Positions 180 through 15,095 are shown, numbered from the stretch's first letter. The stretch is 64,000 bases of DNA from Acholeplasmataceae bacterium (GCA_963675245.1 OY775910.1:768001-832000), one strand, 5' to 3'. Notes: generated by a model from the letters alone, not told the origin. Numbers and translations: made by a program.

Positions 180-293
180 AAGGAGAAAGGCGAGTCGTAA
201 CAGACTCATTACAATTCTCACTTATGGGTATTCGCAAGAAGACCTGTAAACATTACACTCATCATATTCAGTTTCCAAAGACCCTTAACATAT

Positions 294-370
<77 letters not shown>

Positions 371-414
371 TATAATGATTTATACGGTTTACCCTTTTTT
401 AGTCACAAAAAAAA

Positions 415-490
415 GGGGCCTTAGCTCAGCTGGGAGAGCGCCTGCTTTGCACGCAGGAGGTCAGGGGTTCGAGCCCCCTAGGCTCCACCA
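415..490 (+). tRNA. tRNA-Ala(TGC)
   Basis: GGGGCC acceptor, TT-TGC-AC loop, CCA end. Confidence 0.97.
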
Positions 491-496
491 ATATTA

Positions 497-529
497 AAGA
501 TCTTTGAAAAGTAGATAAAAGCTGTCATA
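497..529 (+). other. 23S precursor processing stem, 5' strand (pairs with ~3550-3580)
   Basis: ATCTTTGAAAAGTAGATAAAAGCTGTCATA is largely complementary to TATGACAGCATTTATCTAGTTTTGAAGGAT. Confidence 0.7.
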
Positions 530-587
530 AAAAAGAAAAGTTGTTTTTAAGGCAAAACAACGTGTTGATTATTCTAACGAATAACAA

Positions 588-3436
<2,849 letters not shown>

Positions 3437-3579
3437 TTAGTTTTGAAAAAACGAATAGCACGAGGGTTTTCCTAAGGAAAGCCAGTGCACAAGTTAACAA
3501 TGAAAGCCTTATAGACAACAAACTCTTGATTTTCCTAGTGAAAAACAAGTATGACAGCATTTATCTAGTTTTGAAGGAT

Positions 3580-3691
3580 TGTCTGGTGGCGATGGCGAAG
3601 TGGACACACCTGTTCCCATCCCGAACACAGCAGTTAAGCACTTCTGCGCCGACGATAGCACTAAGGTGCGAAAATAGGACGCTGCCAGGCA
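3580..3691 (+). rRNA. rrf: 5S rRNA
   Basis: CCCATCCCGAACAC motif; terminal pairing TGTCTGG/CCAGGCA. Confidence 0.95.
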
Positions 3692-3709
3692 TTTCTTTAA
3701 TAATTAAAT

Positions 3710-3785
3710 GGGAGTTTAGCTCAGTTGGGAGAGCATCTGCCTTACAAGCAGAGGGTCAGCGGTTCGAGCCCGTTAACTCCCACCA
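3710..3785 (+). tRNA. tRNA-Val(TAC)
   Basis: Cloverleaf, anticodon TAC, CCA. Confidence 0.96.
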
Positions 3786-3792
3786 TTTAATT

Positions 3793-3868
3793 GCCGAAAT
3801 AGCTCAATCGGTAGAGCAACTGACTTGTAATCAGTAGGTTGCGGGTTCAATTCCTGTTTTCGGCACCA
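3793..3868 (+). tRNA. tRNA-Thr(TGT)
   Basis: Cloverleaf, anticodon TGT, CCA. Confidence 0.96.
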
Positions 3869-3874
3869 CTTTTC

Positions 3875-3950
3875 GACCCGTTAGCTCAGTCGGTAGAGCA
3901 CTTGACTTTTAATCAAGGTGTCGAAGGTTCGATTCCTTCACGGGTCACCA
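3875..3950 (+). tRNA. tRNA-Lys(TTT)
   Basis: Cloverleaf, anticodon TTT, CCA. Confidence 0.96.
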
Positions 3951-4657: not shown

Positions 4658-4733
4658 GGCTCTGTAGCTCAGTCGGTAGAGCAAAGGACTGAAAATCCTT
4701 GTGTCGGCAGTTCAATTCTGCCCGGAGCCACCA
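4658..4733 (+). tRNA. tRNA-Phe(GAA), anchor of the cassette array
   Basis: AAGGA-CTGAAAA-TCCTT anticodon arm, CCA end; last tRNA of the cluster. Confidence 0.97.
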
Positions 4734-4747
4734 TGGAGACCTTAAAT

Positions 4748-4774
4748 AAGCCATTTATAGTGGCTTTTTCTTTT
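4748..4774 (+). terminator. Intrinsic terminator of the tRNA cluster (copied in the array repeats)
   Basis: AAGCCAT-ttata-GTGGCTT followed by a T tract. Confidence 0.85.
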
Positions 4775-4864
4775 ATAAAACGCTTAAAAGTCAATCATTT
4801 GATTATATATTGTCTAGATTAATTAAACAATGGTATAATAAAAGAAAATTGTTGGTGGGGATTT

Positions 4865-5416
4865 ATGAAAAAAATTCTAATAGTTTTATTGTTTATTTTT
4901 TTGCTAACTGGTTGTGCTAAACAACGAACGGAAAATATTGTTGAAGATTTAAATGAGAGCAGTAATTTTGAATATGGCTTATTAATAGAAGTCACTAGTG
5001 ATATTAAAACTCATTTCAATATTAGTCCCGGTTTTGGAGTATATACACTTTTTGATTCATCCATTGAAATAGATATTCAGCAGGAAAGCATTCTAAGTTA
5101 TATAGATGAATATGAAACAACCACATATGATGTAACAGCATATCCAGATTATTCTGATGGTGGAGAATATATTACAATGATTTGGACGACCGATCCAGAT
5201 GTTCATATTTATGACTTATCTGTAGGTGATTCATATACTGAAGAGGAACTAAGTGAATATATGTTATCTTTAGGATTCACTCGAACAAACGATTCAGAAA
5301 ATATATTTATGTATAATAAAGAGCGATTAAATATTTCGATCTTCGTTGAGAGTAACATCATCACGAAGATGTATGTAAGAGTAGATATTACTAATAGATG
5401 GAATATTCAGTATTAA
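4865..5416 (+). CDS. Cassette 1: hypothetical lipoprotein
   Basis: MKK-hydrophobic-LLTGC lipobox; TGGTATAAT at 4831. Confidence 0.85.
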   Translation: MKKILIVLLFIFLLTGCAKQRTENIVEDLNESSNFEYGLLIEVTSDIKTHFNISPGFGVYTLFDSSIEIDIQQESILSYIDEYETTTYDVTAYPDYSDGGEYITMIWTTDPDVHIYDLSVGDSYTEEELSEYMLSLGFTRTNDSENIFMYNKERLNISIFVESNIITKMYVRVDITNRWNIQY

Positions 5417-5444
5417 TTAATAGAATGAATTAGTAAAAGTTGCT

Positions 5445-5538
5445 TGAAACGACTGAAAATCCTTGTGTCGGCAGTTCAATTCTGCCCGGAGCCACCATGG
5501 AGACCTTAAATAAGCCATTGATAGTGGCTTTTTCTTTT
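5445..5538 (+). repeat. R1: TGAAAC + tRNA-Phe 3' half + terminator
   Basis: 5451-5538 matches 4687-4774 at 87/88 nt. Confidence 0.98.
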
Positions 5539-5633
5539 GTATATGGGGAAGCTTGTCCTTGTATTAACCAAGTATTGTCCTCATTTGAAACTAATGCTAT
5601 AATTAAATTAATTAACACATGGGGGTAGAATTG

Positions 5634-6110
5634 ATGAAAAAAATAATTTTAATTTTTTTTGCAACATTCGTAGTTTTATTTATGTCAGCATGTAAACCAT
5701 ATACATATAACGGAAAAGAAATCGAGTCATTAAAATTCGTTGATATTGATTATTTTGGAGACTATAGACATGAATCAATCATTGATCTACAAAATGGAGA
5801 AGTACTCCACAGACAGTACTCGCCTGAAATCCCAACCCCAGATTATGAAATAGATTTTACATTTGATACTTCCGAAGTTGATTCTTTTTTGGATGAGTTT
5901 GGTTCATCAGGCATATTCAATTTAAAAGAAGAATATCATACAATCTATCATGTTGATGATGGTGGCGGATGGATATTTACAATTTATTATTCAGATGGAA
6001 CCGAAAAAACATCTACAGGAGATAATTATTGGTTAACGAAAGTTTTTGAAAAAGCAGGAACAGCGACTATCAATTTATACGGAGATAATTTATTTGATCC
6101 AGTACACTAG
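5634..6110 (+). CDS. Cassette 2: hypothetical lipoprotein
   Basis: MKKIILIFFATFVVLFMSAC lipobox; GGGGG RBS; TTGTCC-17-TATAAT promoter. Confidence 0.85.
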   Translation: MKKIILIFFATFVVLFMSACKPYTYNGKEIESLKFVDIDYFGDYRHESIIDLQNGEVLHRQYSPEIPTPDYEIDFTFDTSEVDSFLDEFGSSGIFNLKEEYHTIYHVDDGGGWIFTIYYSDGTEKTSTGDNYWLTKVFEKAGTATINLYGDNLFDPVH

Positions 6111-6131
6111 TCGATATATAGTTTGGCAGTA

Positions 6132-6223
6132 TGAAACGACTGAAAATTCTTGTGTCAGCGGTTCAATTCTGCCCGGAGCCACCATGGAGACCTTAAATAA
6201 GCCATTTATGATGGCTATTTCTT
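6132..6223 (+). repeat. R2: full repeat
   Basis: TGAAACGACTGAAAATTCTTGTGTCAGCGGTTCAATTCTGCCCGGAGCCACCATGGAGACCTTAAATAAGCCAT...ATGGCT. Confidence 0.97.
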
Positions 6224-6268
6224 ATTGAAGATGATATAATCAAAATATGATTTCAGGGGGTTACACTT

Positions 6269-6811
6269 ATGAAGAAGACTATTATATTTTTCATGATGAT
6301 ATTAATTTGTGTATTACTTTATTCTTGTAATGGATATAATAATTTAATGTATGATCACTTGAGTGATTTGAATAATTATATATCAGTTACGGGAACGATA
6401 GAAAATATAGTATTTTTTGATGCAGATTGGAATGAATTGAATTGGGATTTATCTGATGATGATATTCCGGATTTATATGAACACTTATGCATATATATCA
6501 AGTTTTACTCTGAAGATGACTATCTGCAATTCACAGGAACATCAAATATTCCCGAAAATTTTGAGTATCAGTCAGTATCTATAATGTTTGATATGATTAA
6601 AACAAATATTGAAATATTAAACGAGAATAGCTTTTTTAAAGAATCGATGATTGATGAAGAAGTTTCAATAGTTACTTCAAATTGGATATATATGGATACA
6701 AATTTTTTTCAAATAGTTGGGCTGAGCTTTGAGGAGATTTCCTACCTTGATCCAGAAGAAGGGTTAAATAATTATAGTACTTATATGGAAGACAATAGTT
6801 CATTGTTTTAG
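6269..6811 (+). CDS. Cassette 3: hypothetical acidic lipoprotein
   Basis: MKK-hydrophobic-LLYSC; TGATATAAT and AGGGGG upstream. Confidence 0.8.
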   Translation: MKKTIIFFMMILICVLLYSCNGYNNLMYDHLSDLNNYISVTGTIENIVFFDADWNELNWDLSDDDIPDLYEHLCIYIKFYSEDDYLQFTGTSNIPENFEYQSVSIMFDMIKTNIEILNENSFFKESMIDEEVSIVTSNWIYMDTNFFQIVGLSFEEISYLDPEEGLNNYSTYMEDNSSLF

Positions 6812-6825
6812 AAAGAAAGGGTACG

Positions 6826-6919
6826 TGTAACGACTGAAAATCCTTGTGTCGGCAGTTCAATTCTGCCCTGAGCAACCACGGAGACCTTAAATAAGCCATT
6901 TGTGATGGCTTATTCTTTT
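6826..6919 (+). repeat. R3: full repeat (GCAACCACGG allele)
   Basis: TGTAACGACTGAAAATCCTTGTGTCGGCAGTTCAATTCTGCCCTGAGCAACCACGGAGACC plus hairpin. Confidence 0.97.
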
Positions 6920-7008
6920 GTAAATTCAGTAAAAGTCCTTTTGCTTACTACGTTTTGTCGAAAACTAAATAGTAATGATATAATTAAAGAAAACTTTTTG
7001 GGGATCAC

Positions 7009-7512
7009 ATGAAAATAGAATATTTTATGATTGAACTTAAAGACATTTTAAAATCCTATTACTGTATATGGTATTTTTCTGAAAATAGCGAAAAGGATTT
7101 TTTAGTTAAAAGCAACAATAAGATTGCCGTATTTGATTATATTGAATCTGTAATTTTATATGCAAGTGTGAATAATATTGGATTATTGGATGAAAAACAG
7201 CATGCAATATACGATTTAAATTATATTCAAGATTTAGTTAATGGAAAAACATCTCACATTGATTGTAGCGATATACTTGATTTTTGGAATATAGTTGATG
7301 CAATATGTAATACACTGAATATTGTTTTCATTGGATTGGAACATAGATTTGATAAACTGTATGATAAATTATTCAGAGGATGTAATACAATATTAAATAA
7401 AGAAATATACACACCTCAATGGAGTAAAAGCGAAATTAATCAGATAAAAAAGTTATTGACAGAATTCCTATTGATTATTAGCAATGTGTTAAAAGGTGCA
7501 CGAAACGACTGA
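7009..7512 (+). CDS. Cassette 4: hypothetical protein (stop codon inside R4)
   Basis: 167-aa ORF with GGGGA RBS and TGATATAAT. Confidence 0.8.
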   Translation: MKIEYFMIELKDILKSYYCIWYFSENSEKDFLVKSNNKIAVFDYIESVILYASVNNIGLLDEKQHAIYDLNYIQDLVNGKTSHIDCSDILDFWNIVDAICNTLNIVFIGLEHRFDKLYDKLFRGCNTILNKEIYTPQWSKSEINQIKKLLTEFLLIISNVLKGARND

Positions 7513-7594
7513 AATTCCTTGTGTCGGCAGTTCAATTCTGCCCGGAGCAACCACGGAGATCTTAAATAAGCCATTGATAGTGGCTTTTTCTTTT
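7501..7594 (+). repeat. R4: full repeat (GCAACCACGG allele)
   Basis: CGAAACGACTGAAATTCCTTGTGTCGGCAGTTCAATTCTGCCCGGAGCAACCACGGAGATC plus hairpin. Confidence 0.97.
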
Positions 7595-7682
7595 GGAGAA
7601 TCATCAATAATCCCTTTGTCAACAATGCCTTGTCTAATTTTCATGAATAATATATAATTAAATAAAAAAGTGGGGAGTATAT

Positions 7683-7988
7683 ATGACACCAGAGATGGAA
7701 AAACTTTACAACAGTCTTAGTACGGTTAAAGTTAAAAATGTTGCACAAGCATATGATTATTTAGGTAACGAAGTAAATGGGCTTGATATGGATCATAAAT
7801 TGTCGTTTGAGATGACTCTAGAAGCTTTAAAGAACGTCAATAAAGATTATAAATTATTAAAAAAATATTATAAAGGTAAAATCGATACTAATCTTGAAAG
7901 TGTTTATACTAAGTATCCAGAAGATTCAGAAGAATATTTCTTTTTAAAGTGCTTAATTAGATTGACTGAATATAATGTCACGAGATAG
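7683..7988 (+). CDS. Cassette 5: hypothetical protein
   Basis: 101-aa ORF, GGGGAG RBS, TTGTCT-17-TATAAT. Confidence 0.8.
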   Translation: MTPEMEKLYNSLSTVKVKNVAQAYDYLGNEVNGLDMDHKLSFEMTLEALKNVNKDYKLLKKYYKGKIDTNLESVYTKYPEDSEEYFFLKCLIRLTEYNVTR

Positions 7989-8007
7989 AGGGTTTGACAT
8001 TTGTGTA

Positions 8008-8026
8008 TGAAACGACTGAAAATCTT
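8008..8026 (+). repeat. R5: truncated repeat (core only)
   Basis: (GTA)TGAAACGACTGAAAATCTT, then diverges. Confidence 0.9.
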
Positions 8027-8055
8027 TATATTTACTCGTAAAAGGGGAAGTTAAA

Positions 8056-8370
8056 ATGATATTGTCTGAAAAAACAGATTTAAGTTTCTTTCACGACTCA
8101 AGAGTTGGTGAGATTAATTATAATTATGCGAGCAAATCTTTAATTTTTCACTTGTGTTTAGATAGTTCATCATCAATTAGAAGAGAAGTTGAACTCAAAG
8201 CTAACATTGTTTTTTCTGTAGAATTAAATTCGATAGAGCCTTGGGGACCAGGAATATACATAAATGAGGTCACATTAGAAGATAAAATAGAATTTAAAAG
8301 GCTATCAATAATAATAAATTCAGGAGATATATTTGTTATTGATGCAAATTTATTTGAAATAATTATTTAA
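8056..8370 (+). CDS. Cassette 6: hypothetical protein (FHD motif; possibly immunity-like)
   Basis: 104-aa ORF, AGGGGA RBS. Confidence 0.75.
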   Translation: MILSEKTDLSFFHDSRVGEINYNYASKSLIFHLCLDSSSSIRREVELKANIVFSVELNSIEPWGPGIYINEVTLEDKIEFKRLSIIINSGDIFVIDANLFEIII

Positions 8371-8376
8371 CATGCA

Positions 8377-8400
8377 TGAAACGACTGAAAATCCTTGTGT
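8377..8400 (+). repeat. R6: truncated repeat
   Basis: TGAAACGACTGAAAATCCTTGTGT fused directly to TATAAT. Confidence 0.93.
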
Positions 8401-8455
8401 TATAATTATATAATTTAATAACAGGAACAAAAAACTAAGTAAGGAAGAAAATGTC

Positions 8456-8854
8456 ATGAAAACATTAAAGGATATTGAAATTAAGGATTTCAATGAAAGT
8501 AATCTCATTAGATTTAAAAATATAAATATTGATGAAGATACCGAAGTTTACAATGTCACCATGCATGTTTTTGTTAAGAATAATTTTCTACAATGCATAT
8601 CAGAATCATTGACTTTTCATTCTAAAGAACTGTTAACATTTTTTGATAACTGCAAAGACATTTATGATAAATTGACCGGAAACACAACTATTGAATCGAT
8701 AGAAAACAAAAAATGTATATTGACATTGAAAGCAATAAGCAAAGGATATATTGAAATATCTGGAACAATAGAGCAATTAATTGGTTCAAACAAGTGCGAA
8801 TTTACTCTACTTTTTGATCAAACATGTCTCAAGGATAAATTTAACATATCATAG
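8456..8854 (+). CDS. Cassette 7: hypothetical protein, possibly WapI-like immunity family
   Basis: 132 aa; IYDKLTG...KGYIEISGTI...FDQTCL pattern. Confidence 0.7.
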   Translation: MKTLKDIEIKDFNESNLIRFKNINIDEDTEVYNVTMHVFVKNNFLQCISESLTFHSKELLTFFDNCKDIYDKLTGNTTIESIENKKCILTLKAISKGYIEISGTIEQLIGSNKCEFTLLFDQTCLKDKFNIS

Positions 8855-8889
8855 AATTCTCAAATTATTATATTAGTGAAGTTGTTGCA

Positions 8890-8980
8890 GGAAACGACTG
8901 AAAATCCTTGTGTCGACAGTTCAATTCTGCCTGGAGCCACCATGGAGACCTTAAATAAGCCATTCAATATGGCTTTTTTT
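8890..8980 (+). repeat. R7: full repeat
   Basis: GGAAACGACTGAAAATCCTTGTGTCGACAGTTCAATTCTGCCTGGAGCCACCATGGAGACC plus hairpin. Confidence 0.97.
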
Positions 8981-9032
8981 ATTTCACTTTGATATAATTT
9001 AGTTAAGTAAATACGCAATTGGGGAGAAAAAT

Positions 9033-9455
9033 ATGATTAAATTCAGTTTTGTTAAATCAATCAAAAATGATTATGCTTTATTTGGTTCTGCAATAGTAGT
9101 AATACTGTTAATACCCTTTGTAGTTTATAATATTGTAAAAGGTGAATTTAATGCTGTATATGTTTTTGGATCAATAGATTTGTGCTTTATATTTTTATTT
9201 TTATGGCGGTTACTTGTAATCAAATCATATTTTAATGATTCTATAGAATTAGAAGGAACAATAACTAAAATTTGGTTTTATAAAGATAGAGGAAGAGTGG
9301 AATTTTACTATAAAATCGAAACCCGTGAATTTGGAAAGGGACATGCAATAATGAAGACAAAAGCTACTTTAGCATTAAATAAAGGCCAAAAAGTCAAACT
9401 ACTAATTAAAAATAGAAATCACCAGAAAGCAATTATTGCTGACTTGTATTCGTAG
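9033..9455 (+). CDS. Cassette 8: two-TM membrane protein with basic beta-rich C-terminal domain (DUF3592-like)
   Basis: Two hydrophobic segments, then GTIT...VEFYY...KGQKVKLL. Confidence 0.75.
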   Translation: MIKFSFVKSIKNDYALFGSAIVVILLIPFVVYNIVKGEFNAVYVFGSIDLCFIFLFLWRLLVIKSYFNDSIELEGTITKIWFYKDRGRVEFYYKIETREFGKGHAIMKTKATLALNKGQKVKLLIKNRNHQKAIIADLYS

Positions 9456-9479
9456 AAACATACAATATTTTATTTATGA

Positions 9480-9500
9480 GTATTAAACGGCAGAAAATTC
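9480..9500 (+). repeat. R8: degenerate core-only repeat
   Basis: GTATTAAACGGCAGAAAATTC matches GTATGAAACGACTGAAAATCC at 17/21, in the expected intergenic position. Confidence 0.75.
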
Positions 9501-9509
9501 AGTATTTTT

Positions 9510-9824
9510 GTGGAGAAACCAAATAGAATAATGCAAAAGACTGATTATCGAAAAGAATTGCTTATTGAATTTTCTTTCCTTGATATTGACAAAAAAAGAG
9601 ATTATTCCTTATACAGACCTCATCTTGTTGTACAAGGAGATTCAGAATATTTAGGTATAGCGTTTTATGCTGATACCATAAAAAAAGAAGGAAATAAATA
9701 TACAGCAAGAATTCATTGCATATATGAAGGTGTAAATTATAATAAACTACTCTCAAATGTTTTATTTGAAATAAGGGAGGGACCCATTATTTTAGCTAAA
9801 GGAAGGGTATTGAAGGAATTATAA
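9510..9824 (+). CDS. Cassette 9: stand-alone EF-Tu domain III-like protein (start uncertain, 9510 or 9531)
   Basis: YRPHLV...FEIREGPIILAKGRV resembles EF-Tu YRPQFY...FAIREGGRTVGAGVV. Confidence 0.7.
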   Translation: MEKPNRIMQKTDYRKELLIEFSFLDIDKKRDYSLYRPHLVVQGDSEYLGIAFYADTIKKEGNKYTARIHCIYEGVNYNKLLSNVLFEIREGPIILAKGRVLKEL

Positions 9825-9844
9825 TCTAACGTCACCGGTTTGTA

Positions 9845-9927
9845 TGAAACGACTGAAAATCCTTGTGTCGGCAGTTCAATTAACCAAGGAGACCTAAAAT
9901 AAGCCATTCTATGTGGCTTTTTCTTTT
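9845..9927 (+). repeat. R9: repeat with internal deletion
   Basis: ...GGCAGTTCAATT^AACCAAGGAGACC; lacks CTGCCCGGAGC. Confidence 0.96.
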
Positions 9928-10016
9928 ATATAAAGGGAGATTGTCGTTCTATCGATTGTATCTTGTTCAACTTTAATGAATAGTGTTATAATTAAAGAAA
10001 ATATTGGAGGGCCAAT

Positions 10017-10325
10017 ATGAACAAATATGTTAAGGGTTTAACATTTGAAAACATTATTGGTAAGTTAATTTTGGTTGGTATTACATACGAAAACAAAAAC
10101 GGTGATGTGTTGAGTTATAGACAATTTCATGGACGAGTTATACAAGCAGATTCAATTAAAGGTATAACAATTAAAAACGAAAGTAATCAAACATATAATT
10201 TACCACCAGATTTAAATTATTTTATAGTTGCTAAACCAGGTGAATATCGAGAAAAAGAATCGGGGATAGTCATTAGTGATCCAGATTATATCACCCAATG
10301 GATTTCAACACAATCAGACACATAA
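10017..10325 (+). CDS. Cassette 10: hypothetical protein
   Basis: 102 aa, GGAGGG RBS, TGTTATAAT; LPPDL...PGEYR...DPDY motifs. Confidence 0.82.
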   Translation: MNKYVKGLTFENIIGKLILVGITYENKNGDVLSYRQFHGRVIQADSIKGITIKNESNQTYNLPPDLNYFIVAKPGEYREKESGIVISDPDYITQWISTQSDT

Positions 10326-10365
10326 TTATTACTCATTGTATTATAATAACTTTATGAATAGAGTT

Positions 10366-10455
10366 TGAAACGACTGAAAATCCTTGTGTCGGCAGTTCAA
10401 TTCTGCCCGGAACCACCATGGAGAACTTAAATAAGCCATTTCGATGGCTTTTTTT
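10366..10455 (+). repeat. R10: full repeat
   Basis: TGAAACGACTGAAAATCCTTGTGTCGGCAGTTCAATTCTGCCCGGAACCACCATGGAGAAC plus hairpin. Confidence 0.97.
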
Positions 10456-10709
10456 ATGACTGATTAGGGATGATTCTTGTCATGACTCACACTTGTTATC
10501 ATGAATAGATTAGTGCTATAATAATAGTTAATTGGTAATCGATAACTTAAACATATTTATCACAAGCAAAAGTGAATCATAATAATAAGAGTTATTGTTT
10601 CATTTCAACTCAATATAGACACGCATGTATAACTTCAGGGGACAGCATGGACATGGTGTTTTTTATTTAAGGATTTCATCCATATATGATAAGAACGGAA
10701 GGAGAACAT

Positions 10710-13700
10710 ATGAAAGGATCAAAACTATTCAATAGGGGGTTTTCTCTAAAACTACTCATGTTTTTAACGATGTGTTGTTTGATGTTACTTGTATCACCAA
10801 TTATTATTGTTGCTACTAAAAGTACACTAGTCACATCTTTTACCAGCAATTATAATGACCAAAATGAAGTCTATCAAGCGGCTAATGCATTTAACGAAGC
10901 GCTTGTTGAAGAAGGAATTGTGCTTCTAAAAAACGAGAATCAAGCATTACCGTTAGCTGCTGGATCTAAAGTTAATGTTCTGGGTAAGAATTCTCATGAT
11001 ATCGATCTTGGAAACACAACCATAGGTTCAATAAATTATGATGAAGCATTCATATCACCAATGACGTTATATGAGAGTCTGGAAGCAGTTGGTTATATAC
11101 TTAATCCTGACCTAATATCTTTCTACGAAAATGATAATTTATCAGGTACTGGTAGACATGTGTCAAATCTTGGCATATGGCCAGTACCAATCTCAATTGG
11201 TGAAACACCTCAAGAAAACTACTCACAAAGCCTATTAAGTACTTATGCTGATTATTCGGATGCATCTATTGTTGTATTCACCAGAATAGGTGGTATAGGG
11301 TTTGATTTGCCAACCACCATGACAGATGCTTTGGGTGATCCAGATGTCGGATCAGAAGAAGGAGACCATTACCTTGAGTTAAATTTGAATGAAGAGGCGT
11401 TATTATTATCACTCGAAAGTGATCCTAGCGTTAGTAAGGTCATTGTGATCATCAATGCTAGTCAACCGATGGAACTTGGCTTTTTAAACGATTCTGAGAC
11501 GTATTCTAAAATTAAAGCTGCGCTTTGGGTTGGAGGACCAGGAGTATCTGGTGTATCTGCCATTGGTCGTGTATTGGTTGGTGATATTAATCCATCAGGA
11601 CATCTTGTAGATACGTATATAACAGATTTTAAAACCGATCCAACATGGTTTAATTTAGTGAATCGTGAAAATAAAAACAGATATGGCATGATGATTGATG
11701 ATATGTTCACAGAAACGAATGTCAGTTTTGTCGATTATGAAGAGGGAATTTATGGTGGTTATCGTTATTGGGAAACTGCGGGTTTTGACGCCAATGACAA
11801 CTGGAGTTGGTATGACAATCATGTTGTCTATCCATTTGGTTATGGATTGAGTTATTCGACATTTAATTGGGAACTTGTTGGTTCACCTATTTTTCCAGAA
11901 ACACTCACAGTTGATTCAAGCATTTCAATAACCATTAGGGTTACGAATACTAGCAGTGTACCGGGCAAGGACGTTGTTCAACTATACTATACACCACCTT
12001 ATTATGATGGTGGTATTGAAAAATCATATATCAGGTTGGCTGATTTTGAAAAAACACCGTTGTTAAATCCTTCAGAATCAGCAGATATTACATTGACAGT
12101 TTCATTAAAGGATCTCGCATCATATGATTATCAGGATGCGAACAACGATGGATTTATAGGGTATGAACTTGAGGCGGGTAGTTATATCTTTAATGTCTTA
12201 CAAAATGCGAATATCCGTTCAACAAATGGTGTTTCAGATATGACCTTAGTCGTACCAGTGGCACCAGGAAATGGTGCAACTTCAGGACAGACTGGACTTC
12301 ATTTTGCCTATGATGAAGTCACGGGACACGAGATTGAAAATCTATTTAATGATGTATCACAAAAAGCGCTTAATGGACAGTTGGATAATCTTAACACACA
12401 AGCAGTTAAGGATAGCGGCGGTGTGATGCATGTGATGAGTCGTGCTACGGCTAAAGGAGGGCTATCTGGAACCATACCAATAGAATACCCAAGTGATGCT
12501 GATCGAACTATCACACAAACGTTTATTGATAACGGAAATATACCAGTAGATACCACATCACGTAATGTCGCAGATATCACACAACCATGGTATCAGACAA
12601 CATATCCAATTCAAGCTGAAAGTGAAACGGGCACTGTATCCGTTTTACTAAAAGATTTGATTGGTTTAGATTATAATGATCCACTATGGGAAACATTTAT
12701 GAATCAAATGACCTATCAAGAAATGGCGACATTAATTGGTGATGGTACATTCCATACGATACCGATATCAAGGTTAGGTAAGCCATGGTCCATTGAACTT
12801 AGTGGGACAACTGGCTTGATTCCAAGACAAGAGACGACGACGTTAGAATCTATGAATGAGGCAATTGCATGTGTTTATGCAACACAACCCGTTGTAGCGG
12901 CTACTTGGAATAAATCGTTGGTTTATGATTTCGGTGAAATGGTTGGTGAAGAATCTATTTGGGGTAATACTGAATTTGCTTATTCGGGTATTTATGCTCC
13001 AGGATTAAATATCCATCGATCACCATTTTCAGGACGCAACTTTGAATATTATAGTGAAGACGCTGTTCTATCAGCTAAGATTGCTAAAGCATTTTCGTCT
13101 GGTGCTTACTCAAAAGGACTTAGTACAATTATGAATCATCTTGTCTTAAATGAGCAAGAAACAAATCGAGAAGGACTCACTTCATGGGTGGATGAACAAA
13201 CATTGCGTGAAATATATTTATACCCATTTGAAAAAGTAATAAAAAATGGACAAACACATGGCGCGATGGTTTCTTATAGTAAGATTGGTAATACATGGAC
13301 CAGTACGAGTTATGCATTACTCACAGAACTTTTGAAAGATGAATGGGGATATGAAGGCATGATCATGACGGATTGGGTGACATATTCATCCAAAATGGAA
13401 TGGATGATTCGTGCAGGTGTTGATCTATTATTAACCGGAAATGAACCGGCGGTTTTAAATTATGAAGGTGAGGATTTAACGGCCACTCAAGCATGGGCAT
13501 TACGTAATGCATCAAAAGATGTTTTGTTCTATGTTGCAAATAGTAATGCTATGATTCCGAGATTATACTATGAAGGTGAATCATCTGAAGTCGAAGATTT
13601 CACAAGAGGAGTAGCGTATACACTTGATGTTTCTGGTGTACAGACAAATTATGAATTAGACACACCATTAAGTGTGACCTATACTGCTGAAGGATTACCT

Positions 13701-15095
13701 AATGAACTACTAATGGATCCTTCGACTGGTATTCTTACTGGCACACTGCCTGTAGCCAATCCTAGCCAGTGGTGGAATACGCCACCAACTTCTTATACAT
13801 TTACAGTAACGGTAACAGTCCCCGAAGGTACAACAATCAATACGTCCATATCAAAGGAATTTACGATTCATCAAGCGAGTATGCAAGAAATATATCTTCT
13901 TGATACAGCTACAGTAGGTGAAACTTATTATTCAGATGCTATTAGAGTTTCATCAAGTATTCCCGTTGATGCTACTGATATTATGTTCGAAATAGATCCC
14001 GGATTAGCGCTTTATAATTTGGTTGTCAGAGAACCATCTCAACCATTACCAGATGGTTTGGTTATGAATCCGGATGGTACGATTACCGGCATACCAACAA
14101 CACCAAGTGAACCGGTCGATATTACGGTTCAAGTGACTGCACCTGGATTTGTTACCACATATATTACAAGAACCATATCTGTGCGACCTGCAGATCCAAA
14201 AATCGTAATGAATAATGTGATATTACCTAAAGCTGAAGTCAATCAAACATATCAAGCAATTTTTGTAGCAACCGGTAGCGATGAGATTACTTTCACATCA
14301 GATGAAATACCTATAGGTTTAGCTCTAAATCCAAACGGCACACTTTCTGGCACCCCTGAAGAAGTAGGAACACACATGTTTCATGTAACAGCATCTGCAA
14401 TCGATATGGTTCCAGTTTCCGCTGTTGTCGTTCTTGTTGTCTACGACACCATCGAAATTTCTAGTTTAACATTCCAAGATAAGTTACTAGAATCTGGACA
14501 AGTTGGTATATCATATAACGCTTTATTATCTGCTAGTGGTGCTGACGATATTGTCTTTACATCACATGATTTGCCACCTGGAATCACATTAAATGATAAC
14601 GGAACTCTAACAGGAATTCCAACAGAGGCTGGTGTGTATTTATTTCACGTAACAGCAACCGCGTCAGGTATGCCATCGAGTGAGGCTATCATGTGCCTTA
14701 GCATTACTGAAACAGAGATCATTTTACCTGTAATTACATTAAACCACATTGAATTAGACGCTGGTGAAGTTGGGTCAGCATATAGTGCAACAATTACAGC
14801 AAGTGGTGCAACAAATATCATATTCTCTACAGAAGATCAGTTACCAACAGGGTTGACTTTATCAACAGATGGCATACTTTCAGGTACACCAACCGATGCA
14901 GGCACATATATATTTAAAGTGACAGCATCAGCTGATGGAACAACAGAAGCTACTGCATTTATTGCCATTCAAATCAATCCAATCGTAGCATCATCAACGG
15001 GTTGTGGGTCAACAATAAATATGTCGGCTGCAATCGTGTCTTTTATGTTAATTATGATAGCTTGTGCCTACTTAGTAAGTAGGAAAACATACTAA
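10710..15095 (+). CDS. Cassette 11: membrane-anchored GH3 glycoside hydrolase (C-domain first) with repeated Ig-like domains
   Basis: GIVLLKNE, YPFGYGLSY, GKDVVQLY, GRNFEYYSED, IMTDW; LPxGLxLxxxGxLSGTP repeats; N- and C-terminal hydrophobic segments. Confidence 0.9.
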   Translation: MKGSKLFNRGFSLKLLMFLTMCCLMLLVSPIIIVATKSTLVTSFTSNYNDQNEVYQAANAFNEALVEEGIVLLKNENQALPLAAGSKVNVLGKNSHDIDLGNTTIGSINYDEAFISPMTLYESLEAVGYILNPDLISFYENDNLSGTGRHVSNLGIWPVPISIGETPQENYSQSLLSTYADYSDASIVVFTRIGGIGFDLPTTMTDALGDPDVGSEEGDHYLELNLNEEALLLSLESDPSVSKVIVIINASQPMELGFLNDSETYSKIKAALWVGGPGVSGVSAIGRVLVGDINPSGHLVDTYITDFKTDPTWFNLVNRENKNRYGMMIDDMFTETNVSFVDYEEGIYGGYRYWETAGFDANDNWSWYDNHVVYPFGYGLSYSTFNWELVGSPIFPETLTVDSSISITIRVTNTSSVPGKDVVQLYYTPPYYDGGIEKSYIRLADFEKTPLLNPSESADITLTVSLKDLASYDYQDANNDGFIGYELEAGSYIFNVLQNANIRSTNGVSDMTLVVPVAPGNGATSGQTGLHFAYDEVTGHEIENLFNDVSQKALNGQLDNLNTQAVKDSGGVMHVMSRATAKGGLSGTIPIEYPSDADRTITQTFIDNGNIPVDTTSRNVADITQPWYQTTYPIQAESETGTVSVLLKDLIGLDYNDPLWETFMNQMTYQEMATLIGDGTFHTIPISRLGKPWSIELSGTTGLIPRQETTTLESMNEAIACVYATQPVVAATWNKSLVYDFGEMVGEESIWGNTEFAYSGIYAPGLNIHRSPFSGRNFEYYSEDAVLSAKIAKAFSSGAYSKGLSTIMNHLVLNEQETNREGLTSWVDEQTLREIYLYPFEKVIKNGQTHGAMVSYSKIGNTWTSTSYALLTELLKDEWGYEGMIMTDWVTYSSKMEWMIRAGVDLLLTGNEPAVLNYEGEDLTATQAWALRNASKDVLFYVANSNAMIPRLYYEGESSEVEDFTRGVAYTLDVSGVQTNYELDTPLSVTYTAEGLPNELLMDPSTGILTGTLPVANPSQWWNTPPTSYTFTVTVTVPEGTTINTSISKEFTIHQASMQEIYLLDTATVGETYYSDAIRVSSSIPVDATDIMFEIDPGLALYNLVVREPSQPLPDGLVMNPDGTITGIPTTPSEPVDITVQVTAPGFVTTYITRTISVRPADPKIVMNNVILPKAEVNQTYQAIFVATGSDEITFTSDEIPIGLALNPNGTLSGTPEEVGTHMFHVTASAIDMVPVSAVVVLVVYDTIEISSLTFQDKLLESGQVGISYNALLSASGADDIVFTSHDLPPGITLNDNGTLTGIPTEAGVYLFHVTATASGMPSSEAIMCLSITETEIILPVITLNHIELDAGEVGSAYSATITASGATNIIFSTEDQLPTGLTLSTDGILSGTPTDAGTYIFKVTASADGTTEATAFIAIQINPIVASSTGCGSTINMSAAIVSFMLIMIACAYLVSRKTY

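Follow-up and report, generated by a model that had tools for sequence, protein, structure and literature searches.

How a bacterial chromosome comes to hold ten short, unrelated genes in single file behind one tRNA gene, each closed off by the same short sequence and most of them by a fragment of that tRNA, is the question raised by a stretch of 64,000 nucleotides (nt) from an Acholeplasmataceae bacterium (GCA_963675245.1 OY775910.1:768001-832000), referred to here as the window. The window starts inside an rRNA operon, which is followed by a tRNA gene cluster whose last member, as called by ARAGORN, is an intact tRNA-Phe(gaa) on the + strand at 4658-4733. Behind it lie ten junctions, the first of them at 5441-5470, in which an internal part of this tRNA is joined to a short arm of non-tRNA sequence. 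The reading favored here, to which a probability of roughly 0.75 is assigned, is that the junctions are attR-type scars (att, attachment site) left when small gene cassettes, in circular form, were integrated in series at the anticodon loop of tRNA-Phe by a Xer-like tyrosine integrase, with the intact gene as the regenerated, attL-type target. The genome of the window (G000) is a single contig of 1.63 Mb with a guanine-plus-cytosine (GC) content of 33.9%; its family is designated f1, and a second family of the same class is designated f22.

The tRNA-Phe gene is present in a single copy, the sole one among the 42 tRNA genes of the genome, so that any insertion into it must rebuild the gene. Positions 30-41 of the tRNA form a 12-nt core, GACTGAAAATCC (4687-4698), composed of GA, the loop CTGAAAA, and TCC. 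With at most one mismatch allowed, the core is matched 11 times in the window, always on the + strand, against 0.45 matches expected, and none of 100 shuffles of the window yields as many. The matches comprise one in a tRNA-Leu, one in tRNA-Phe itself, and nine partial copies, which start at 5451, 6138, 6832, 7507, 8014, 8383, 8896, 9851, and 10372. All ten junctions are built alike, a 10-nt non-tRNA arm with the consensus TGCATGAAAC being joined to the core; in the numbering used below, the arm occupies positions -10 to -1, and the core begins right after it and ends at +11. The array is real and lies far beyond chance, and a genome-wide search found the combination of arm and core nowhere outside the array and tRNA-Phe. 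The ten 10-mers that precede the core are identical, and in the same order, to those listed in an earlier model-made account of this DNA, referred to as the sequence-only reading. The first junction, which that account had singled out, reads TGCTTGAAAC GACTGAAAATCC TTGTGTCG on the + strand, with the arm at 5441-5450 and the core at 5451-5462; to its right, the tRNA 3' half continues to 5497 with 47 identities in 47 positions, and a terminator hairpin lies at 5512-5530.

The other nine junctions, likewise on the + strand, preserve the tRNA part to varying degrees. Junction 2 (6128-6149) is composed of AGTATGAAAC and GACTGAAAATTC and keeps 44 of 47 positions of the tRNA 3' half, while 45 of 47 are kept at junction 3 (6822-6843; TACGTGTAAC and the core), at junction 4 (7497-7518; TGCACGAAAC and GACTGAAATTCC), where the core contains the stop codon of the open reading frame (ORF) at 7009-7512, and at junction 7 (8886-8907; TGCAGGAAAC and the core). 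Junction 5 (8004-8025; TGTATGAAAC and GACTGAAAATCT) lacks the tRNA 3' half, as does the degenerate junction 8 (9479-9500; AGTATTAAAC and GGCAGAAAATTC), and junction 6 (8373-8394), the sole window copy with the exact 22-mer consensus, consists of TGCATGAAAC, the core, and TTGTGT, with unrelated sequence after that. At junction 9 (9841-9862; TGTATGAAAC and the core), the tRNA 3' half is internally deleted, and at junction 10, the last (10362-10383; AGTTTGAAAC and the core), it is kept at 46 of 47 positions and followed by a terminator at 10433-10450. Overall, the tRNA 3' half and the terminator are retained at seven of the ten junctions, six with 44-47 of 47 positions and one (core at 9851) with 38 of 47 in an ungapped comparison; for the three core copies without it (8014, 8383, and 9489), the ungapped identities are 21, 25, and 18 of 47. 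Terminator-like sites number 10 against 1.7 expected, and eight + strand hairpins follow the tRNA and its seven tRNA-like copies. An intact tRNA followed by seven 3' fragments in direct orientation on the + strand is the displaced-fragment arrangement characteristic of tRNA attachment sites. The whole array of ten cassettes extends over 4687-10450 on the + strand, with a GC content of 28-32% against about 34% for the genome, and its origin as proposed here would account for a 5.8-kb low-GC stretch of ORFan genes in the window.

Two claims of the sequence-only reading concern the boundary between arm and tRNA. Its statement that tRNA identity always begins at one fixed point holds for nine of the ten copies, in which identity starts at GACTG (tRNA position 30); the degenerate copy at 9479 takes away the word "always". 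Its statement that the arm is not tRNA is decided by position -1, which is C in all ten arms and G in the tRNA, although arm and tRNA do agree at five of ten positions, which in this genome are T at -10, A at -7, and AAA at -4 to -2. Across the ten window junctions, the column information reaches 2.0 bits at -3 to -1; it lies between 0.84 and 1.53 bits over -10 to -4 and between 0.15 and 0.84 bits over -24 to -11. Because the AAA at -4 to -2 is common to arm and tRNA (TAGAGCAAAG), the arm could, judged from the window's genome alone, be a decayed stem. In f22, however, the tRNA reads CAATG-GACTGAAAATCC-ATGTGTC, and the right sides of the junctions there follow the local tRNA (ATGTGTC and onward), whereas the arm is still TGCATGAAAC; next to a host tRNA stem of the form CAATG-GA...TCCAT, the arm continues to read AAAC-GA, and the same is found at junctions devoid of the tRNA 3' half. 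Since the arm is constant where the host tRNA stem differs, it is an independent conserved element and not a decayed tRNA stem.

A sequence logo of homologous arrays, which had been proposed as a check, was built from 149 distinct sites with at least six of ten arm matches, taken from 163 core-bearing sites in 64 loci. It has a sharp left edge at -10, upstream of which every position has less than 0.5 bit; positions -10 to +11 are 86-100% conserved, and a less conserved stretch (WTKTGTC) extends to +18. These percentages are upper bounds, because the loci were retrieved by search patterns that contained part of the arm, while the sharp edge at -10 and the secondary sites inside arrays are free of this bias. 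Breakpoints scattered along the repeat, which would have spoken for homologous exchange, are not what is seen, as nine of ten window copies share one left edge and the conservation in the logo sets in abruptly at -10.

Absence of the left arm from other genomes, the second outcome that would have spoken against the sequence-only reading, is not seen either. Behind the tRNA-Phe of a genus-mate (G006, an Acholeplasmataceae metagenome-assembled genome, MAG), six partial copies are retrieved by a core-only pattern that does not include the arm, and their arms read TATGTAAAGC, TGCGTGAAAA, TGTATGAAAT, TGCATGATAC, CGCATAAAAC, and TTACATAAAC; seven other genus-mates examined have no partial copies behind tRNA-Phe. 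A scan of one genome per species gave the same arm type in nine further records, assigned to Acholeplasmataceae, Mariniplasma, Izemoplasmatales, and a Bacillota MAG. Matches in Bacteroidota and Verrucomicrobiota from the same scan were set aside, having unrelated arms and the appearance of ordinary single islands. Arm and core together occur in at least 167 stretches of a metagenome scan, and the site occurs in 15 of 401 genomes of a class-wide sample, with 12 of 22 f22 genomes among them; viral contigs scanned with the pattern CATGAAAH plus core gave no match. The densest case is an f22 genome of 2.0 Mb on a single contig (G206), with 55 matches to a 19-mer, 37 of them exact, arranged in about ten arrays on both strands (loci L304-L313). 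Only one of these Phe-type arrays lies at tRNA-Phe; others are located downstream of tRNA-Leu(caa), tRNA-Lys(ctt), tRNA-Trp, and tRNA-Arg(cct), and several of the arrays at other tRNAs have a paralogous integrase, in one case a pseudogene, adjoining that tRNA.

What lies between the junctions is uniform in layout and diverse in content. The ten window ORFs, all on the + strand, are located at 4865-5416, 5619-6110, 6269-6811, 7009-7512, 7683-7988, 8056-8370, 8456-8854, 9033-9455, 9510-9824, and 10017-10325; they encode 101-183 amino acids (aa), occur one per cassette, and are mutually unrelated (best pairwise E-value 0.04). Across arrays, 119 distinct inter-site segments have a median length of 675 bp (range 236-3930), the longest ORF being on the array strand in 112 of them and exactly one ORF of at least 80 aa being present in 83. 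The cassettes are also reshuffled between arrays. Cassette 1 of G006 is window cassette 5 (7507-8014), with 92.6% identity over 485 bp; a relative of window cassette 1, 81% identical, is the second cassette of another array; two metagenome arrays have two 98-100% identical cassettes in opposite orders; and for half of the ten window ORFs, protein homologues are encoded in other loci that contain the site. A groundwater run contains window cassette 7 with 5 differences in 515 nt, and a 1503-nt contig of the same run matches the window at 8374-8436 only, that is, from the arm onward, and differs upstream. On such comparisons, the cassettes behave as discrete mobile units, and they have their own terminators and promoter-like sites.

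In every comparison of cassettes, the arm (-10 to -1) belongs to the cassette upstream of the core, and everything from +12 on to the cassette downstream of it, so the exchange is bounded to the 12-bp core GACTGAAAATCC. The block conserved from -10 to +18 measures 29 bp, and for a simple tyrosine recombinase a core site of about 30 bp suffices; integrases reportedly have preferred sublocations within tRNA genes, as Williams is said to have described in 2002. Three half-sites can be compared, namely, the cassette arm CATGAAACGA, the 5' stem side of the tRNA, GAGCAA(A/T)GGA, and the reverse complement of the shared right side, GACACA(A/T)GGA. They agree only in a loose nAnnnAnnGA pattern around the 7-nt loop, and the dyad is therefore imperfect, in keeping with the earlier description of AACGA and TCCTT as an imperfect pair (4 of 5 positions complementary). 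GAAACGA had been proposed as the cassette-borne half-site; a conserved half-site does exist, and it is longer than this, comprising TGCATGAAAC plus GA.

A candidate for the enzyme comes from three other genomes, in which an integrase-bearing element lies between an intact tRNA-Phe and the first junction. In the G206 array at tRNA-Phe (L312, G206:C1:1,243,000-1,262,000), the order is tRNA-Phe, an ORF for an IS200-like Y1 transposase, a 289-aa integrase on the opposite strand, a 273-aa rolling-circle Rep (PF23343), an HTH_3 regulator, a TGCATGAAAC junction, and eleven further junctions. The layout is the same in G257 (L314, G257:C29), with an integrase 67% identical to that of G206, a PF02407 Rep, and an HTH_3 regulator. 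In G374 (L336, G374:C11), a complete element of 3.33 kb on one contig, with a 289-aa tyrosine recombinase, sits between tRNA-Phe and a ATTGCATGAAAC junction; its attL and attR agree without a mismatch over at least 52 nt starting with GACTG, and just to the left the tRNA has G and the arm has C, which is exactly the boundary of the window junctions. Measured from tRNA-Phe to the first junction, the elements extend over about 4.2 kb in G206 (L312 3418-7620), about 4.5 kb in G257 (L314 1247-5771), and 3.3 kb in G374. All three elements thus contain an integrase gene, which the window cassettes lack, and their arrangement fits the earlier model in which the newest insertion lies next to the tRNA. 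The Rep domains score 46.8 bits (PF23343) and 46 bits (PF02407), and identity between the G206 Rep and replication initiators of small single-stranded DNA (ssDNA) phages is 33-37%. The element in G206 and G257 looks like an integrative rolling-circle replicon or a satellite; in the G374 element, the integrase is the sole component identified, its four small ORFs lying outside the scan.

The placement of these integrases follows their relationships. Integrases at least 60% identical to that of G206 were found at seven loci in 6 of 71 f22 genomes, five adjoining tRNA-Phe and two being contig stubs with no tRNA in the stretch, and among the paralogues of the G206 integrase, one of 44% identity adjoins tRNA-Trp and one of 38% identity adjoins tRNA-Arg(cct). 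With clade members at tRNA-Phe and paralogues at other tRNAs, the choice of target tracks the clade, as for tRNA-specific integrases. All five non-Xer tyrosine recombinases of G206 are located within 8 kb of an array, and a metagenome locus of 620 bp (L216) contains the site followed by the 3' end of a convergent integrase. In f1, the closest relatives share only 36-37% identity and are present in 4 of 121 genomes; three, belonging to one other genus, adjoin tRNA-Phe. The linked integrases are short and Xer-like and fall under every NCBIfam cut-off; a phage search with the integrase gave no match at E 1e-10 or better. This clade would be the acting enzyme under the favored reading. Elsewhere in the window's genome, a 293-aa integrase at about 993.3 kb (L088, 991,849-995,724) lies about 1 kb from tRNA-Gln(ttg), and its G006 paralogue (L270) adjoins tRNA-Leu(caa), both in the reversed orientation that is also seen in the tRNA-Phe clade, which suggests a wider family of small integrases with one tRNA each. 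A second type of arm, TGCA(A/G)TTTTG with G-GACTGAAAATCC after it, was noticed at L050 2315, at L065 3107, 5331, and 6634, at L144 430, and at L337 4048 and 5315; in G437, it precedes GATTGAAAATCC and occurs with an integrase 65% identical to the G206 one, and it may be the arm of a sister integrase subclade.

The proposed sequence of events is as follows. Each cassette, traveling as a circle, would carry TGCATGAAAC-GA at the 3' end of its single ORF and, at its other end, the tRNA sequence from the anticodon loop through the 3' end, with the tRNA terminator behind it. A small Xer-like tyrosine integrase lacking an arm-binding domain would pair this site with the tRNA and exchange strands inside the common 12-bp core GACTGAAAATCC. 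The tRNA would be rebuilt from its own 5' half and the 3' half brought by the cassette, the old 3' half would be pushed downstream behind the cassette arm to give the succession of arm, core, and old 3' half, and older cassettes would shift outward, so that junction 10 would carry the oldest displaced tRNA 3' half. Cassettes without a tRNA 3' half, which make up three of ten here and about half elsewhere, would have been inserted at existing junctions only and not at the tRNA. As the cassettes have no integrase of their own and the genome has no cognate one, the array is most likely an orphan, a slowly decaying record, whose past insertions most likely relied on an integrase supplied in trans. 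In G000 and G006, two genomes without the integrase, 1 of 9 and 0 of 4 junctions have the exact arm, compared with 40 of 52 in G206, where the integrase is present; as the samples are small and the genomes related, this comparison is only suggestive of the G000 and G006 arrays being orphans in decay.

Several observations weigh against this reading. The window contains no PF00589 match and no integrase, the six tyrosine recombinases of the genome all being located elsewhere, and none of these six is close to the tRNA-Phe clade (best identity 30%). The non-Xer integrases of G000, G006, G062, and G063 all lack an adjoining Phe-type site. A tblastn search found no array-adjacent integrase in 160 of 161 metagenome loci, 85 of which are shorter than 2 kb, and Pfam found none among 129 cluster representatives of ORFs of at least 200 aa from 62 loci. 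Since the integrase is absent beside most arrays, its action in trans is assumed and not seen. Neither circular cassettes nor empty sites nor excision joints were seen, the genome's own runs giving contigs that break at every repeat. Joints listed in one run at 4705/4773 to 8372/8373 were set aside, as their sides measure only 20-29 nt and unknown letters stand between them, and a marine run covers parts of the window at low depth. Among 276 sites examined for shared variant cores, there was no informative pair, and the crossover was not narrowed below 12 bp or to the 7-nt loop. The dyad symmetry is weak, with about 5-6 of 10 positions in G000 and fewer in f22; the site counts are inflated by ascertainment, as part of the arm was included in the search patterns; and most of the G206 arrays lie away from tRNA-Phe, a fact of which the simple model gives no account.

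The search for other mobilizing enzymes was likewise negative for the most part. Among 55 genome loci, tblastn placed no integrase beside arrays, save in three ordinary islands with a different arm. No serine recombinase was found in G000, and no Y1/HUH transposase in G000, G006, G061, G062, or G063. Phyletic profiling of the four non-Xer integrases of G000 was uninformative, since their relatives (25-44% identity) are spread over genomes that have arrays and genomes that lack them. The IS110 family was considered as a mobilizer and rejected: it is present in G000 (four identical-scoring copies), G061, and G063 and not in G006 or G062, and as it occurs in only some of the array genomes, it does not track the arrays. 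The four G000 copies, with 405-aa frames, lie at G000:C1 155,847, 635,249, 846,324, and 1,356,460 and are the only obvious multicopy insertion sequence noticed in that genome.

Two other explanations of the junctions retain a slim chance. The first is that the host XerC and XerD integrate the cassettes, in the manner of integrative mobile elements exploiting Xer (IMEX). The XerC-like and XerD-like proteins are the only orthologous tyrosine recombinases (70-86% identity) across the array genomes G000, G006, G061, G062, and G063, and an invariant site hints at a conserved enzyme; yet seven of nine genus-mates have Xer and no array, a dedicated integrase clade is located at tRNA-Phe in other genomes, and the inner arms of the dif candidate, ATAA/TTATG around TATATA, do not resemble the ACGA-CTGAAAA-TCCT of the array (3-5 of 11 matches per arm, compared by eye). 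A dif scan with an 11-nt motif gave too much background to be of use, as did a genome-wide scan with the left arm only. The dif candidate itself, with canonical-looking 11-nt arms, was noticed at G000:C1 ~1,494,090-1,494,115, at the GC-skew maximum (1.49 Mb) and 3-4 kb from the XerD-like gene (~1,490,100-1,491,050); the GC-skew minimum, taken as the origin, is at about 0.688 Mb, which places the window 80-144 kb from the origin.

The second, whose prospects are similarly slight, is that the 22-mer is not an integrase site and serves as a signal at the level of RNA or transcription (3' untranslated region, processing, or promoter) or as a nick site of a rolling-circle Rep. The site does lie at the 3' end of every cassette ORF, the helper elements do encode a Rep of HUH type, and a promoter-like sequence spans the site at junction 5, one of those without a tRNA 3' half. 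There (window 7994-8023), TTGACA at the end of cassette 5 is followed after 18 nt by GAAAAT in the core, a match of 10 of 12 promoter positions, and the TTGACA is retained in the homologous cassette of G006 (L031 ~985-1020), so this junction may also serve as a promoter for the next ORF. Against such a role in general stand the identity of the core with the anticodon region of tRNA-Phe and the attL/attR geometry of intact tRNA and displaced 3' half, identical over at least 52 nt in G374. Moreover, no conserved secondary structure was found, the Rep was detected only in the G206 and G257 elements (the four small G374 ORFs being outside the scan), and no Rep of this family is found in G000, G006, G199, G061, or G063.

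Fainter still is the prospect of RecA-type recombination, or unequal crossing-over, on the repeat of about 88 bp formed by tRNA and terminator, with no recognition role for the arm. The genome region has no integrase, and the repeat, terminator tail included, has sufficient length for RecA, the copies being 70-86% identical; however, the fixed left boundary already contradicts this account, the 10-nt arm lies outside the tRNA homology and is conserved across families with different tRNA sequences, many junctions consist of a 22-29 bp site alone with zero tRNA homology, and the inter-junction ORFs, with their best pairwise E-value of 0.04, are unrelated. Hardly credible, too, is the notion of attC-like junctions recombined as folded single strands by an IntI-type integrase, for although the cassettes are co-oriented, mostly of a single ORF, and reshuffled between arrays that mostly have no adjoining integrase, as in clusters of attC sites lacking integron-integrases (CALINs), two junctions tested on both strands have no ssDNA fold (minimum free energy 0 to -2.1 kcal/mol, z-scores +0.36 to +1.33), the linked integrases score 60-76 bits against the integron-integrase model TIGR02249 with its cut-off of 265, no integrase adjoins the window array, the cassettes bear their own terminators and promoter-like sites, and the primary site is a tRNA gene and not attI beside intI.

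Serial integration into tRNA-Phe by a tyrosine integrase thus being the preferred reading of the junctions, its wider meaning can be considered. To our knowledge, site-specifically built gene-cassette arrays are textbook matter only for integrons, which are found mainly in Proteobacteria. Here, the usual chemistry of integration into tRNA genes seems to lead to a comparable outcome in bacteria that are wall-less, or related to such, and have low-GC genomes of 1-2.4 Mb: single genes, unrelated and each expressed on its own, stand in ordered stacks and are both shared between genomes and reshuffled. A broader proposal, offered tentatively as one joint claim and held at a little less than even odds, is that these arrays represent a second, integron-independent system of gene-cassette capture. 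Under this proposal, hundreds of integrase-less single-gene cassettes would exist as insulated units (terminator, promoter, and ORF) ending in TGCATGAAAC-GACTGAAAATCC; they would be mobilized in trans by a small Xer-like integrase encoded on a rolling-circle replicon of 3-4.5 kb; the anticodon loop of the essential tRNA-Phe would be the primary site, and existing junctions the secondary sites; and arrays would be seeded at many chromosomal places, as in the 2-Mb genome with 55 sites in about ten arrays, with the window array as an orphan relic.

The array can be set beside several known systems. Integrons and CALINs have cargo rich in ORFans and in toxin- or defense-type genes, and many of their arrays have no adjoining integrase. 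The present arrays resemble them in both respects and in the co-oriented single-gene cassettes, shared and reordered between arrays, and differ from them in having no IntI, no folded attC, and no attI/Pc platform, in using an essential tRNA gene as the primary site, and in that each cassette brings its own terminator and promoter-like region; although its workings resemble those of an integron, the array falls outside the integron family. Cis-mobilizable elements (CIMEs), grouped here with site-specific accretion at the att sites of integrative and conjugative elements (ICEs), are integrase-less, att-flanked units that can be mobilized by the integrase of a related element; they are decayed remnants of ICEs, with few per locus. 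They share with the window cassettes the lack of an integrase and the flanking att sites, whereas the cassettes form a large family of uniform single-gene units.

Islands at tRNA genes provide a further comparison. In the accessible text of the Islander study (PMC4383910), anticodon-centered att sites are the commonest class, with 2083 of 3919 islands, and tandems of three or more number only 4 among the 3919, a tandem being called there only if each member has its own integrase. The array resembles such anticodon-loop ('A' class) islands in its intact tRNA with a displaced 3' fragment in direct orientation, identity extending from the anticodon loop past the 3' end, in the location of an integrase beside the regenerated tRNA (the helper elements of G206, G257, and G374), and in the presumed outward displacement of older elements by newer ones. 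Unlike the Islander islands, its members are integrase-less single-gene units of about 0.25-1.5 kb, ten in number here and 12 or more elsewhere, many members have lost or never had the tRNA part, and a near-invariant 10-mer arm on the element side is common to hundreds of different cassettes. Tycheposons of Prochlorococcus, as far as the available portion of their description goes (bioRxiv 10.1101/2020.12.28.424599), measure 10-20 kb and have their own integrase and modules for integration and replication. Apparent shared features are tRNA-specific integration by a tyrosine recombinase, tandems split by partial tRNAs with the newest member beside the tRNA, the pairing of integration and replication modules (in the present case, the integrase and Rep of the G206 and G257 helper elements and not the window cassettes), and islands that grow from leftovers; in that same portion, however, the leftovers are without clear boundaries, whereas the units here are sharply bounded, single-gene, integrase-less, and marked by a 22-nt signature.

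Partial tRNA repeats also mark cassette insertion in integrase-less islands of SAR11 (PMC11796062), and tRNA-targeted 'additive' islands are described for Alteromonas (PMC4119200), both according to the accessible parts of the reports. Partial repeats of the adjoining tRNA that mark cassettes in islands without an integrase are a likeness to the window array; the same parts of these reports describe one repeat per island and multigene cassettes, with no conserved non-tRNA arm and no recurring architecture. Full-text literature searches, supplements aside, returned no description of the signature or of such arrays in Acholeplasmatales-like bacteria. What sets the arrays apart is the uniform integron-like cassette architecture, the near-invariant 22-nt signature, and the spread over many loci in some genomes. 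If mobilization in trans proves true, it would offer a concrete mechanism for the integrase-less islands marked by partial tRNAs in streamlined genomes, a 22-bp search key for cassette cargo in metagenomes, and a compact integrase/att pair as a candidate tool, its protein about 289 aa long and its site about 30 bp.

Applied to the ten window ORFs, PADLOC found nothing in any, and Pfam gave one lipoprotein signal and otherwise sub-threshold matches only, to a WapI immunity protein and two others; the WapI match, in the cassette 7 ORF (8456-8854, 132 aa), has an E-value of 1.5e-4 and 22.4 bits against a cut-off of 27. Larger cassettes in metagenome arrays encode Fic/DOC, AbiEii, HNH, and Mrr-type nuclease proteins, a barnase-like RNase, an XRE-type HTH protein, and GNAT, which suggests that the cassette cargo may be related to conflict.

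Directly 3' of the array, at 10686-15095, lies a gene for a surface protein of 1469 aa, for which no counterpart was found behind tRNA-Phe in the loci of ten relatives. Its domains comprise a permuted glycoside hydrolase family 3 unit, in which the C-terminal domain comes first, an Fn3-like domain, and five He_PIG immunoglobulin-like repeats.

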